Virus record (IMG/VR): IMGVR_UViG_2923286960_000003
Span: 1 to 55,602 of that record
DNA from: a virus
Taxonomy: Duplodnaviria > Heunggongvirae > Uroviricota > Caudoviricetes
Strand: one strand, 5' to 3'
DNA length: 55,602 bases
Below, piece after piece: positions 14,345 to 17,022 of this stretch (positions are counted from its first letter, which is position 1; every line of letters begins with the position of its first letter). The notes under the pieces are model-generated. The model was not told the origin of the DNA. It worked only from the letters and a program-made list of their open reading frames with translations, and did not search any database. A program made the position numbers and the translations under genes.

Positions 14345-14635
14345 CCTGGCCTGAAGCATTAACAACGGTAGGAATTGCGATGGCGGTGGCGCTGGTGGTG
14401 TATTCGATTTGCCGCTGGGGATAAAAACGGTTTGCGGGAAAAGGAGAGTTAAGTAGAATTGCAGCGGGTGCTTGAGGCTATCTGTCTCAGGCATGAACAC
14501 CAAAAGGCAGATAGAGAAAAGCCCCAGTTAACATTACGCGTCCGGCAAGACGCTTAACATTAATCTGAGGCCATATCTATGCTCTACACACGTAGGTTAG
14601 CCTCTTACGTGCCGAAAGGCAAGGAGAAGCAGGCT

Positions 14636-14791
14636 ATGAAGCAGCAAAAGGCGATGCTAATCGCCCTGATCGTCATCTGTTTAACCGTCATTGTGACGGC
14701 ACTGGTAACGAGGAAAGACCTCTGCGAGGTACGAATCCGAACCGGCCAGACGGAGGTCGCTGTCTTCACAGCTTACGAACCTGAGGAGTAA
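14636..14791 (+). CDS. hokD: Hok/Gef family membrane toxin
   Basis: 51 aa MKQQKAMLIALIVICLTVIVTALVTRKDLCEVRIRTGQTEVAVFTAYEPEE matches my memory of HokD/RelF; strong RBS aaggagaag. Confidence 0.85.
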   Translation: MKQQKAMLIALIVICLTVIVTALVTRKDLCEVRIRTGQTEVAVFTAYEPEE

Positions 14792-14860: not shown

Positions 14861-14880
14861 ACCCGCTTCGGCGGGTTTTT
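14861..14880 (+). terminator. rho-independent terminator after hok; left copy of 20-bp direct repeat
   Basis: acccgcttcggcgggttttt; identical 20-mer recurs at 16696-16715. Confidence 0.6.
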
Positions 14881-14892
14881 GCATTAGTCTGG

Positions 14893-14921
14893 TTGACAAA
14901 AATAGAAAAATGCGAAAATAT
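14893..14921 (+). promoter_or_regulatory. putative sigma70 promoter of the moron cassette
   Basis: consensus TTGACA (14893-14898), 17-bp spacer, AAATAT. Confidence 0.4.
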
Positions 14922-14956
14922 GTGGTTTACGAATTCTAAAAAAAGCGAAACTTGAA

Positions 14957-15607
14957 ATGAATGAAAATCAGTTAGCTCCTTGTTGGGAATTTCAACCTTA
15001 TCTTGCTGAAAACTATGTTCGCCACTTGTTGGCGGAGATCGCTAACGTACTTGAGCAGCTGTACTATCATAAGCACGCATTAGACAGCAACTGGTCTGAA
15101 GGTGTAAGGGCTTATGATTGGGTCAGAAATCATCTTATTCAAAATGAAGATGCAATTCCTGGCCTTGAGATGATTTCCAAGGGGTTGGACTATGTAGTTG
15201 CTTTAAATAAAGTTCCGCTACAATTTACCAAAGATTGCATTAATAACCCCAAAAAGAAACATCGTCTGCGTCGAAATAAAGTAGAGTATGAGCAGCTCTC
15301 ATTGTTTGGTGATGTTGAGGCTGAGCAAGATATTACATGGCGAGTCATAGCTGAGCCTTTTTTATCCGAAGAGGGCGATGGTGAATTAGAGTCCACACTG
15401 CCTCGTTGGGAGGTAGCTCTTGTTGGATTTAATACTTATGGTGCTCAGATTAGTATAGTTTCTCATCAATCTACAGCATCGATGCCGCTTATGCCTCTTG
15501 ATTATAACACACTCCCTGACGAAGCGGAGATTAATAAGGTGCCTCTTCGTCGGCGTACGAAGGATAAAGATTTGGATGTGAGCAGTGATGGAACATCAGG
15601 TGAATAA
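14957..15607 (+). CDS. hypothetical protein, cassette gene A (216 aa, no recognisable domain)
   Basis: AT-rich ORF; overlaps gene B start by about 20 nt; acidic C-terminal half. Confidence 0.6.
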   Translation: MNENQLAPCWEFQPYLAENYVRHLLAEIANVLEQLYYHKHALDSNWSEGVRAYDWVRNHLIQNEDAIPGLEMISKGLDYVVALNKVPLQFTKDCINNPKKKHRLRRNKVEYEQLSLFGDVEAEQDITWRVIAEPFLSEEGDGELESTLPRWEVALVGFNTYGAQISIVSHQSTASMPLMPLDYNTLPDEAEINKVPLRRRTKDKDLDVSSDGTSGE

Positions 15608-16691
15608 CTTCACTGAGTATCGGGGTGATAAGCTCAAACTAGCGAGAATGGCTGTTGGGCTTTCTTGTGAAGAGTTAGCCGAAAAAATTGGCAAGACAAA
15701 GCAATTCGTTAGCAAACTGGAGAAGGGGTGCAGGCCATCGGAGCAATGTCTTGAGTTAATATCTTCAGCGCTTATGATTAAGTCCAGTTTTCTTTTTACT
15801 GAACGAAAATACGCTCTGGAAAGTGATGTCTGCCATTTTCGGAGTAAGAAGTCCAGGACTCAAACGCTGACTAATAGTGTATTGGCCAGGGCTGAGATTC
15901 TTAATATTATAATTTCTGCTGTTGAAGGTGAAATCGAATTTCCTGACGTTAACATACCGGAGCACCCAGGGGCTGAATTACTTACTCCGAATGATATTGA
16001 GCGAGTGGCAGAAGATTGTCGCCGCGCCTGGAATTTAGGTCTTGGCCCTATATCATCAATGGTTAAATTGGCGGAGAGTTTAGGGGTAATCGTTGCGCAT
16101 GTTACGGGAGTCGATGATCGTGTTGATGCTTTTACTGTTCACAATAACAGGCCTGTTATCATCAGGAACAATGTTAAAAAAAGCATATGTAGATTTCGCT
16201 CTGATTTAGGTCATGAATTAGGGCATTTAGTAATGCATGAGGGCATAACGACAGGTGATAAACTTACGGAATCACAAGCCGATCACTTTTCGAGCGCCTT
16301 ATTAGTTCCCAGGTTATCTTTCATTAAAGAATTTCCACGAATACGAGGTAAGCAATTCGACTGGAATGCTCTGGTTGAATTTAAACTTAGATGGAAAATC
16401 AGCCTTAAAATGTGTATTTATCGAGCCAGCGCATTAGGCTTATTGACCCAGGAACAGGCAAGAACTGGCTATATGCATCTTAATTCCAGAGGGTATACGA
16501 GAGTTGAACCTGGTGATGAACTTTTGCGCCCTGAAGAACCCGGCATGCTGGCCGAGGCGATTGAAATGCTGGATGATGCAACCTGGCTAAGAATTCTTAT
16601 GAAAACTGGCTTGAGCCAAGATTTAATTCGTGAGTTGTTCTCCATCAACAGACCTATTACAAATCCAAGAAATATTTTCCAGATTGTTTGA
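15588..16691 (+). CDS. XRE-family HTH fused to ImmA/IrrE-type zinc metallopeptidase (COG2856-like), cassette gene B
   Basis: N-terminal HTH (LSCEELAEKIGKTKQFVSKLEKG); HEXXH motif DLGHELGHLVMHEG; 367 aa. Confidence 0.7.
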   Translation: MEHQVNNFTEYRGDKLKLARMAVGLSCEELAEKIGKTKQFVSKLEKGCRPSEQCLELISSALMIKSSFLFTERKYALESDVCHFRSKKSRTQTLTNSVLARAEILNIIISAVEGEIEFPDVNIPEHPGAELLTPNDIERVAEDCRRAWNLGLGPISSMVKLAESLGVIVAHVTGVDDRVDAFTVHNNRPVIIRNNVKKSICRFRSDLGHELGHLVMHEGITTGDKLTESQADHFSSALLVPRLSFIKEFPRIRGKQFDWNALVEFKLRWKISLKMCIYRASALGLLTQEQARTGYMHLNSRGYTRVEPGDELLRPEEPGMLAEAIEMLDDATWLRILMKTGLSQDLIRELFSINRPITNPRNIFQIV

Positions 16692-16695
16692 GTAT

Positions 16696-16715
16696 ACCCG
16701 CTTCGGCGGGTTTTT
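16696..16715 (+). terminator. rho-independent terminator; right copy of 20-bp direct repeat
   Basis: acccgcttcggcgggttttttgttttt. Confidence 0.6.
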
Positions 16716-16848
16716 TGTTTTTATTTTCAACGTGTTTGAAGTTTTGGACGGTGCCAGAATAGAATCAAAAATACTTAAGTAGCGCGCAGGGAGAAGAGGG
16801 ATGGACCCCGAACAGGGGGAGTGCTATTTATCTGGAAGGATTCTGTTG

Positions 16849-17022
16849 ATGAAAATCGAAGAATTACGTGAAATTTTTAGTGAAGATGGCCTCTATGCTG
16901 TGCGCGTTGAGAATGGGGGTATTACCTACACAGCGTTAATTCCTGATGATCATGTAGTGTTATCTGTTGAGGCATTCATTGAATACTTGGAAAGACTCGG
17001 TTTCAAGGTAGTTCGGGAATAA
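16849..17022 (+). CDS. small hypothetical protein (57 aa)
   Basis: ATG with GGAAGGA RBS; AT-rich. Confidence 0.3.
   Translation: MKIEELREIFSEDGLYAVRVENGGITYTALIPDDHVVLSVEAFIEYLERLGFKVVRE

Follow-up and report, generated by a model that had tools for sequence, protein, structure and literature searches.

The AT-rich two-gene cassette that follows hokD in this prophage probably encodes a RosmerTA-type toxin-antitoxin/anti-phage module, carried as a self-contained moron in an E. coli prophage; we put the probability of this reading at roughly 0.7. The cassette lies in a window of 55,602 nt, the whole stretch of DNA analyzed here (Caudoviricetes record IMGVR_UViG_2923286960_000003). A first-pass annotation of the sequence had proposed a mobile conflict module in which an HTH/ImmA regulator accompanies a toxin or abortive-infection effector. 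That description matches RosmerTA, and PADLOC profiles identify both genes, but the system is a published one and not unknown: its type has been described already, and defence-finder HMMs recognize both partners. [quoted passage not shown] The system from E. coli OLC-716 has been verified and protects against phages (Millman 2022).

Both genes are on the plus strand. Gene A (14957-15607, 216 aa) is the putative toxin gene, rmrT, and gene B (15588-16691, 367 aa counted from an ATG that has a GTG just before it at 15585) is the putative antitoxin/regulator gene, rmrA. The two genes share 20 nt, gene B starting before gene A has ended, much as the first-pass annotation had it, and the RefSeq coordinates agree. 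The gene B product matches the PADLOC RmrA profile PDLC03943 with an E value of 6.2e-105 and, as expected for RosmerTA, joins an Xre HTH and an M78 HExxH peptidase in a single protein. Pfam searches placed HTH_3 (5.1e-07, Xre-type) at residues 16–62, about nt 15624-15797, and Peptidase_M78 (6.5e-11, M78/ImmA-IrrE Zn-peptidase) at residues 176–281, about nt 16113-16430, which bears out the N-terminal HTH and HEXXH motif read earlier from the sequence; a C-terminal region extends beyond the two domains. The catalytic motif is intact. HELGH occupies residues 209–213 (codons 16212-16226), and the HExxH residues H209, E210 and H213, like the downstream Glu, E228, do not vary among nine RmrA partners. 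Gene B is under purifying selection, with a dN/dS of 0.02–0.03.

The HTH and M78 domains are also common to regulators of the ImmR/ImmA and CapH/CapP kind, and gene B matches the capP (1.6e-14) and capH (1.5e-4) profiles as well, as would be expected if it were a protease-gated repressor of prophage induction or of neighboring genes, with gene A as an unrelated passenger. We regard such a switch as extremely unlikely. In ImmR/ImmA (ICEBs1), DdrO/IrrE (Deinococcus) and CapH/CapP (CBASS), an Xre HTH repressor is cleaved by an M78 metallopeptidase on a stress signal, which offers a model for gating, but in those systems two distinct proteins govern integrases, repair genes or CBASS, whereas here the two activities are fused and paired with a putative toxin. 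ImmR/ImmA modules keep repressor and protease in individual genes at the immunity/integration region, from where they control induction of the element itself; the gene B product is a fusion encoded in the nin region. The prophage also carries separate immunity genes of the repressor/cro type near its early region, and otherwise similar phages lack the cassette, which has neither a CBASS nor an integrase partner. Finally, across slots and elements that are unrelated, genes A and B always occur together, overlap and have a conserved promoter in common.

Gene A had been described at first as matching nothing recognizable, which was mistaken. It matches the PADLOC RmrT profile PDLC03929 (E 4.6e-25, residues 7–209 on profile positions 5–195 of 198) and PHROG 5786 (E 8e-85), and as a gene adjacent to and co-oriented with rmrA, it is the partner expected in a RosmerTA locus. 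PDLC03929 was matched by all 55 of the gene A family members tested. The family contains about 65 representatives at 50% identity, and the wider family spans 195–225 aa and includes Vibrio members. No match was found in Pfam or NCBIfam for gene A or for any of 66 family members, nor were sequence relatives found in the PDB with either of two profiles, and the identification of gene A as a known structural or metabolic protein was rejected on these grounds. An initial structure model had a pLDDT of 61; a second, built with a 66-sequence alignment, reached a pLDDT of 75 and a pTM of 0.68, and a Foldseek search of the gene A model against the PDB and BFVD returned nothing significant. A PD-(D/E)xK nuclease fold, defined by an alpha-beta-beta-beta-alpha-beta core and by conserved D and (D/E)xK catalytic residues, was weighed for gene A as a tentative candidate. 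The profile and structure searches proposed for gene A therefore delivered the RmrT assignment, but neither a confident fold nor homology to a known structural or metabolic protein. The protein is acidic (pI 4.9) with a disordered C-terminal tail; these traits are more typical of antitoxins and count against the working of RosmerTA set out below.

A comparison with the verified OLC-716 system, using reference sequences taken from the Millman 2022 supplement, showed the same layout, a two-gene operon in which a small protein is followed by a ~370-aa HTH and Zn-peptidase protein. The RmrA proteins are 29% identical over 300 residues (E 2e-35), but the RmrT proteins have no detectable similarity, and the OLC-716 toxin belongs to profile PDLC03935 rather than PDLC03929. 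Gene A was rejected as a version of that toxin (BLASTP E 7, hhalign probability 0.1%). Because the definition of RosmerTA spans many unrelated RmrT families, the lack of RmrT similarity does not exclude membership. A further RosmerTA, from Gordonia phage Kita, defends against two BASEL phages, and its toxin has predicted membrane segments and depolarizes the membrane (Ernits et al. 2023). The two loci are alike in being phage-borne and in pairing an RmrA-type antitoxin with an orphan toxin, with narrow anti-phage protection in Kita. However, the Kita toxin is of the membrane type, whereas no transmembrane segment was found in gene A (maximum 19-residue hydropathy 0.84), and its product is predicted to be soluble and cytosolic; the absence of a hydrophobic segment led us to reject a Kita-like membrane toxin.

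The cassette is present in 237 of 5426 complete E. coli genomes (4.4%), with NCTC86, 042, ABU 83972 and many clinical isolates among the carriers. The portion of the Millman 2022 instance tables available to us did not have 042, ABU 83972, DEC5E, NCTC86 or BEN2908 among its entries. The pairing of genes A and B was kept in 12/12 loci examined, representing nine species. In every context seen (four in E. coli, and Enterobacter, Serratia, Xenorhabdus, Leclercia, Shewanella and a Desulforhopalus-like contig), the gene A homologue was followed immediately by an HTH_3 and Peptidase_M78 gene of 359–375 aa. An overlap of 14–20 nt between the two genes is conserved within the close subfamily. A scan of species-representative genomes with close alignment recovered E. 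albertii and Xenorhabdus only, and neither megablast nor tblastn found the cassette in deposited phage genomes.

Better characterized relatives suggest which of the two proteins is the toxin. On MGIVmi1 of Vibrio mimicus, the product of the upstream gene, Vmi480 (198 aa), is lethal and is neutralized by Vmi470, a 362-aa HTH and Zn-peptidase protein that is harmless alone (Luo 2015). The E. coli prophage pair E101_02645/02644 has the same configuration; clpP becomes essential in its presence, and a suppressor mutation mapped to its upstream gene (Rousset 2021). Like the putative toxin-antitoxin pair described here, both pairs combine a ~200-aa upstream toxin with a ~360-aa downstream HTH and Zn-peptidase antitoxin, are tightly linked and reside on mobile elements. 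Their protein lengths fit those of the gene A family and its partners, a likeness by description and not by sequence. Cluster look-ups toward Vmi480 and E101_02645 (WP_001179380.1) returned "hypothetical protein" labels only, Vibrio members among them. Across the relatives in the literature, toxicity of the upstream gene, neutralization by the HTH-peptidase partner and, for the OLC-716 and Kita systems, phage defence are documented, and by analogy they may apply to the cassette.

Reversed roles, with the gene B HTH-peptidase as the harmful protein and acidic gene A as its inhibitor or antitoxin, appear quite unlikely. There is a precedent in PD-lambda-2, a system of three genes (HigB-like, Xre-peptidase fusion and P4-antitoxin-like) in which the peptidase fusion is toxic alone and is rescued by the upstream gene (Vassallo et al. 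2022). The soluble, antitoxin-like character of gene A would fit, as would its faster evolution relative to gene B (dN/dS 0.06–0.20, which is again purifying selection). However, neither the gene A nor the gene B protein matched the PADLOC PD-lambda-2 profiles, the cassette has two genes only, and gene A has no HigB/RelE Pfam match. The unobtainable rmrA deletion in the reference RosmerTA, the lethal upstream gene with its harmless partner in Vibrio mimicus and the position of the E101 suppressor all favor gene A as the toxin. Among decayed copies it is gene A that is affected, by a frameshift in Plesiomonas, and this fits the expectation for a toxin; together with the conserved pairing of the two genes, it lends indirect support to a toxic RmrT that RmrA neutralizes. 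As an observation in its own right, the toxicity of the peptidase fusion in PD-lambda-2 counts against the RosmerTA working.

The host element is an ompW-integrated E. coli lambdoid prophage, and the cassette sits in its nin region, directly past the hokD terminator. The window matches E. coli NCTC86. Outside the cassette and upstream of it on the plus strand is a hok/mok/sok type I toxin-antitoxin locus (14466-14791), supported by Pfam, Rfam and the RefSeq annotation of hokD; it comprises the sok region (14466-14641; Rfam RF01794, 117 bits), the mok ORF (14579-14791; Pfam HOK_GEF, 2.9e-23) and hokD (14636-14791). Proximity to hok/sok, the classic stabilization locus, is one reason to consider a plain addiction module, which would stabilize the prophage by post-segregational killing upon loss or excision and have no anti-phage role. 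Several RosmerTA homologues, moreover, give little or no protection, with published activity ranging from protective to inactive and often narrow or absent, and the published accounts of Vmi480/470 and of the E101 pair present them as TA modules only (Luo 2015; Rousset 2021). We nevertheless think it unlikely that addiction is the whole function. Both the OLC-716 system and that of Kita are phage-protective, and members of the RmrT family occur in defence-type neighborhoods (beside a RES-domain gene, in islands with AlpA or an integrase) and in moron slots of prophages, where cargo for defence against superinfection is typically found. An addiction role and an anti-phage role are not mutually exclusive.

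A putative promoter and operator block precedes gene A on the plus strand (14890-14950). Its TTGACA, a candidate −35 element, was correctly placed by the first-pass annotation directly after the left copy of a 20-mer repeat; it lies at 14893-14898, 12 nt past that copy. With a spacer of 17 nt, the best −10 candidate is AAATAT (14916-14921), which is weak, and for this reason no promoter was called by a consensus scan. The weak −10 and the missing promoter call are a further observation that counts against the RosmerTA working. Two 28-nt direct repeats of the form TGGTTkAC...GCGAAA cover 14890-14917 and 14923-14950, spaced 33 nt apart. The block of ~70 nt, with both direct repeats, is kept in the E. 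coli, Enterobacter, Serratia and Xenorhabdus cassettes, and the sequence 5′ of it varies. The repeats are probably binding sites of the RmrA HTH. A search for an operator motif common to distant cassettes gave only a short TTGACAAA-type duplication, which was unconvincing.

If the cassette is a RosmerTA system, a single transcript from the TTGACA promoter would encode RmrT and then a translationally coupled RmrA. The N-terminal Xre HTH of RmrA would bind the two repeats over the promoter and keep the operon low, and RmrA would also neutralize RmrT, whether through direct binding or by cleaving it with the HExxH Zn-peptidase domain. Infection by a sensitive phage might inactivate RmrA, titrate it or cause its self-cleavage, comparable with events in ImmA/ImmR, IrrE/DdrO and CapP/CapH; the soluble, cytosolic RmrT set free would then arrest the cell before the phage cycle ends, an arrest that would protect lysogens and, incidentally, the prophage. 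In this scheme, promoter activity, operator function, the trigger, the part played by the protease and the target of RmrT are our inferences. A more speculative proposal, which we advance tentatively and consider doubtful, is that the PDLC03929 family represents a novel class of cytosolic toxin, which may have a degenerate restriction-endonuclease-like fold and a new active site (D43, R51, Y53, E110, R129 and E133) and would be released when the fused HTH-metallopeptidase RmrA processes itself at a conserved linker (CHFR motif). On the same proposal, terminator hairpins such as that of hokD may act as recombination joints moving cassettes between lambdoid prophages.

As the system type is already known, the value of the locus is practical, and current understanding is unchanged by it. 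It offers a compact, natively regulated RosmerTA with an orphan toxin family in well-studied strains, and would be a handy model for the action of an orphan RmrT, the substrate of the RmrA peptidase and the phage signal that releases the toxin.

Downstream of the cassette is a rem-like ORF of 73 aa (16801-17022, plus strand; PHROG 340, 1.8e-18), annotated in RefSeq as a pseudogene fragment; compared with the mEp460 and K-12 rem, its N terminus is Rem-like and its C terminus has diverged. The gene order in the K-12 Qin prophage is relB-relE-hokD-rem, which places relBE upstream of hokD and the cassette in the hokD-rem spacer. The earlier suggestion that the cassette had been swapped for relBE is therefore wrong, and replacement of relBE is excluded. 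The spacer is occupied by the cassette here and is empty in K-12 and phage mEp460. Relative to these empty sites, the inserted segment is ~1835 bp (14881-16715, plus strand) and comprises the promoter/operator block, rmrT, rmrA and a terminator.

The first-pass annotation had also noted an identical 20-mer on either side of the cassette and a low G+C content between the copies, and both observations held. The 20-mer, ACCCGCTTCGGCGGGTTTTT, has exactly two copies in the window, at 14861-14880 and 16696-16715 (plus strand), compared with an expectation of zero from 100 dinucleotide shuffles. The 1815 bp that they bracket have a GC content of 0.416, compared with 0.517 for the window and 0.475 and 0.518 for the 2-kb flanks, and this is the lowest value among 538 sliding windows of equal size. 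Both copies fold into a G+C-rich hairpin followed by a T run and are ordinary intrinsic terminators, the right copy belonging to the cassette. Cassette-free K-12 Qin and mEp460 have the 20-mer in single copy, in the same place as the left copy; the empty sites read GCGGGTTTTT followed directly by GTTTTTATTTTCAACG, and in the window the GTTTTTATTTTCAACG continuation comes after the right copy. The left copy is the terminator of the hokD transcript and predates the insertion. The first-pass annotation had allowed that ordinary terminators in cassette-free relatives would tell against its interpretation; the repeats are of this kind, and the reading of the cassette is unaffected.

An exact 20-bp direct repeat flanking an insert, with a single copy at the empty sites, is also what would be expected of a target-site duplication, or of attachment sites if the cassette were actively mobile. 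We consider this origin very unlikely. No transposase or recombinase was found among the ORFs of the cassette or by Pfam, and both copies form canonical terminator hairpins. The terminator that closes cassettes away from hok (Enterobacter, KL53) keeps the CCCGC/GCGGG stem but differs in its loop, and these cassettes lack a left copy to match; in a 94% variant of the cassette, the left and right copies are not identical to each other. Common CCCGC-UUCG-GCGGG terminators that recombined or converged account for the repeat pattern, and a transposon was ruled out by the hairpins, the missing transposase and the unmatched copies elsewhere. The cassette does recur in other settings, namely further lambdoid moron slots such as Q-to-holin in Serratia, as the first-pass annotation had thought worth checking.

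The cassette is therefore a typical prophage moron. Like other lambdoid morons, it has its own terminator and a putative promoter of its own, has a GC content below that of its flanks, lies between conserved phage genes and has empty-site relatives, and its filled site, set beside the empty ones, makes a clean pair for a moron that has entered at a terminator. Its only oddity relative to other lambdoid morons is that its terminator is identical to the adjoining hokD terminator.

The two genes of the AT-rich cassette, gene A (14957-15607, 216 aa) and gene B (15588-16691, 367 aa), overlap by 20 nt and are annotated as the same CDSs in RefSeq. PADLOC profiles identified gene A as RmrT (PDLC03929, E 4.6e-25, residues 7-209 covered) and gene B as RmrA (PDLC03943, E 6.2e-105), with matches to 13 further RmrA models. 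Gene A belongs to PHROG 5786, of unknown function (8e-85), and gene B to PHROG 2439 (7.6e-123); gene B carries Pfam HTH_3 and Peptidase_M78 domains and a HELGH motif. RmrT and RmrA together make up RosmerTA, and sequences of the verified pair from E. coli OLC-716 are provided in the supplement of Millman et al. Gene B is 29% identical to OLC-716 RmrA over ~300 residues (E 2e-35), and no similarity was detected between gene A and OLC-716 RmrT (hhalign probability 0.1%), which falls in a separate RmrT profile, PDLC03935. This is the expected pattern because the definition of RosmerTA takes in many unrelated toxin families. Judged by its sequence, the system is already known, since published RosmerTA profiles recognise both genes and the architecture fits the published description. 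The first-pass annotation, which had proposed a toxin or abortive-infection effector paired with an HTH-protease, therefore named the right kind of system, but not a new one.

The best-supported model is that the cassette encodes a RosmerTA toxin-antitoxin or abortive-infection module. Both proteins would be made from an autoregulated bicistronic operon, with RmrT held in check by RmrA; infection by particular phages would inactivate RmrA, and the cytosolic RmrT thus freed would stop growth. The literature behind this mechanism concerns only relatives of the cassette. OLC-716 RosmerTA confers defence, and an rmrA deletion was unobtainable (Millman et al.); Vibrio mimicus Vmi480 is lethal and is neutralised by Vmi470 (Luo 2015); clpP becomes essential in the presence of an E. 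coli prophage pair, and suppression came from a mutation in that pair's upstream gene; and RosmerTA of the Gordonia phage Kita protects against two BASEL phages (Ernits et al. 2023). A purely addictive role for the cassette is less well supported. So is a reversal of roles, with gene B harmful and gene A its restraint, for which there is a precedent in PD-lambda-2, where an Xre-peptidase fusion is the toxic part (Vassallo et al. 2022). The C-terminal third is frameshifted or altered in three gene A homologues, P0016 (Plesiomonas), P0013 and P0014 (Salmonella and another); decay of this sort is expected of a toxin gene and gives a weak, indirect hint that gene A is the toxic partner.

A word-indexed search with gene A returned only Enterobacterales relatives (53-84% identity). 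An exhaustive profile search recovered 65 representatives at 50% identity, mostly of 195-225 aa, with named members in Dickeya, Leclercia, Shewanella, Vibrio, Pseudovibrio and Desulforhopalus. All 55 aligned members match PDLC03929 (best E 3e-72), none has a Pfam match, and no profile found a PDB sequence. Kita RmrT depolarises the membrane, whereas the gene A product is hydrophilic and acidic (pI 4.9) and lacks any transmembrane segment. An AlphaFold2 model of gene A (66-sequence alignment; pLDDT 75, pTM 0.68) predicts two long N-terminal helices, then a beta-beta-beta-alpha-beta core with two further strands, and a tail disordered from approximately residue 175. A Foldseek search of PDB and viral models gave nothing significant, and the polar residues conserved across the family (D43, R51, Y53, E110, R129 and E133) do not form a PD-(D/E)xK motif; a nuclease-like fold is therefore only a lead from the model. 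The profile and structure searches suggested at first pass yielded an RmrT match and no confident fold.

A gene of 359-375 aa encoding HTH_3 and Peptidase_M78 domains lies directly 3' of the gene A homologue in 12/12 loci, drawn from four E. coli contexts, three Serratia contigs, two Leclercia contigs, Enterobacter, Xenorhabdus, Shewanella and a Desulforhopalus-like metagenomic contig. The overlap between the genes is retained at 14-20 nt in the close subfamily, which suggests translational coupling. Purifying selection acts on both genes, with dN/dS of 0.06-0.20 in A and 0.02-0.03 in B. The alternative that gene B is a regulatory switch and gene A an unrelated passenger is less well supported than a RosmerTA pair. 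Nine aligned RmrA partners share invariant H209, E210, H213 and E228, the HTH core and an FR linker motif. The latter is part of CHFR(S/K)(K/R), at gene B residues 80-90 (approximately 15825-15857) between the HTH and peptidase domains, where F84 and R85 are invariant in 9/9 partners, OLC-716 included; it may be a site of processing or docking. In ImmA/ImmR, IrrE/DdrO and CapP/CapH, a peptidase is paired with an HTH-containing protein, and gene B matches the capP and capH profiles; the substrate of the RmrA peptidase may therefore be a protein with an HTH, perhaps RmrA itself.

Upstream of gene A, TTGACA is located at 14893-14898, but a consensus scan called no promoter because the best -10 at 17-nt spacing is no better than AAATAT. 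Approximately 70 nt upstream of gene A are conserved among E. coli, Enterobacter, Serratia and Xenorhabdus, and the sequences 5' of TTGGTTGACA are unrelated among these cassettes. Within the conserved block (14890-14950) a 28-nt direct repeat, TGGTTkAC...GCGAAA, is present twice at a distance of 33 nt, and its first copy overlaps the -35 element. The arrangement is read most simply as a promoter carrying operator sites for RmrA, which would make the operon autoregulated. Distant family members also have a duplicated TTGACAAA-type element upstream (L015 4852-4899; L016 840-899, for example ATGGTTGACAAATAA in L016), possibly a common RmrA operator half-site.

Exactly two copies of the 20-mer ACCCGCTTCGGCGGGTTTTT are present in the 55.6-kb window (14861-14880 and 16696-16715; none expected by chance). 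The 1815 bp between the copies have a GC content of 0.416, compared with 0.517 for the window, and are its most AT-rich stretch of that size (lowest among 538 sliding windows). The repeat, the AT-rich 1.8 kb, TTGACA, the overlapping genes and the HTH and HEXXH of gene B were all described at first pass, and all are seen in the sequence. Both 20-mers are intrinsic terminators, in which a T run comes after a G+C-rich hairpin whose loop is of the UUCG type. In cassette-free phage mEp460 and K-12 Qin there is a single copy, which is the hokD terminator; the repeats are ordinary terminators. In these relatives GTTTTTATTTTCAACG directly follows the single copy, and in the window it directly follows the right copy; the hokD terminator is therefore the site of an insertion of approximately 1835 bp. 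The right copy belongs to the cassette: in the KL53 cassette (80% identical, away from hok) and in the Enterobacter cassette, the closing terminator shares the CCCGC/GCGGG stem and differs in its loop, and both cassettes lack a matching left copy. In the STEC346 cassette (94% identical, also beside hokD) the two copies are unlike each other, so their perfect match in the window lineage is most likely the product of a recombination event at two similar terminators, or of conversion between the two. The repeat is not a target-site duplication. A transposon-like origin for the repeats is less well supported than such recombination, and the cassette contains no recombinase gene.

The region matches E. 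coli NCTC86 with 100% identity. The window is a lambdoid prophage that is integrated next to ompW and has an integrase as its first gene, and it appears to hold the whole prophage (L002, from 5602 onward). Its cargo includes dicB, a YdaT-family gene, a DNA methyltransferase, tRNA-Ile, tRNA-Arg, iraM and a SASA-family esterase, as seen over window positions up to ~37100. The cassette lies in the nin region, in the order hokD, A, B, rem-like ORF, DUF968 protein, RusA and Q. Its upstream neighbour is hok/mok with a sok region; the Rfam sok model RF01794 matches at 14466-14641 on the + strand, the same as hok/mok. The order in K-12 Qin is relB-relE-hokD-rem, with relBE on the opposite side of hokD, which contradicts the idea that the cassette was swapped in for relBE. 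The rem-like ORF (16801-17022) keeps the Rem N-terminus (MKIEELREIF...) and has diverged over the remainder, RefSeq has only a pseudogene fragment there, and rem is absent altogether beside the STEC346 variant; the DNA flanking the cassette on the right thus looks recombinationally unstable.

The cassette was found in 237/5426 complete E. coli genomes (at least 99% identity in 224), nearly always in the hokD context, and in no deposited phage genome. One copy is on a plasmid record bearing the whole prophage: NZ_CP195449.1, a 195-kb record annotated as a plasmid, has the same prophage region, hokD and cassette included, which may reflect insertion of the prophage into a large plasmid or a problem of assembly. 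Among species-representative genomes the close subfamily is confined to E. albertii and one Xenorhabdus. A search for other contexts, also suggested at first pass, placed the cassette between Q and the holin gene in Serratia and in the nin region in Xenorhabdus, Enterobacter and KL53, both classic lambdoid moron slots, and distant members in integrative islands beside other conflict genes. Neighbours of these distant cassettes include a HEPN_RES_NTD1 and RES protein (L016 3054-4280), AlpA, a DCD/dUTPase-like gene and genes of unknown function (L013 6838-10597), and ParE/Phd and HicAB pairs in the Xenorhabdus prophage (L007 9449-11355).
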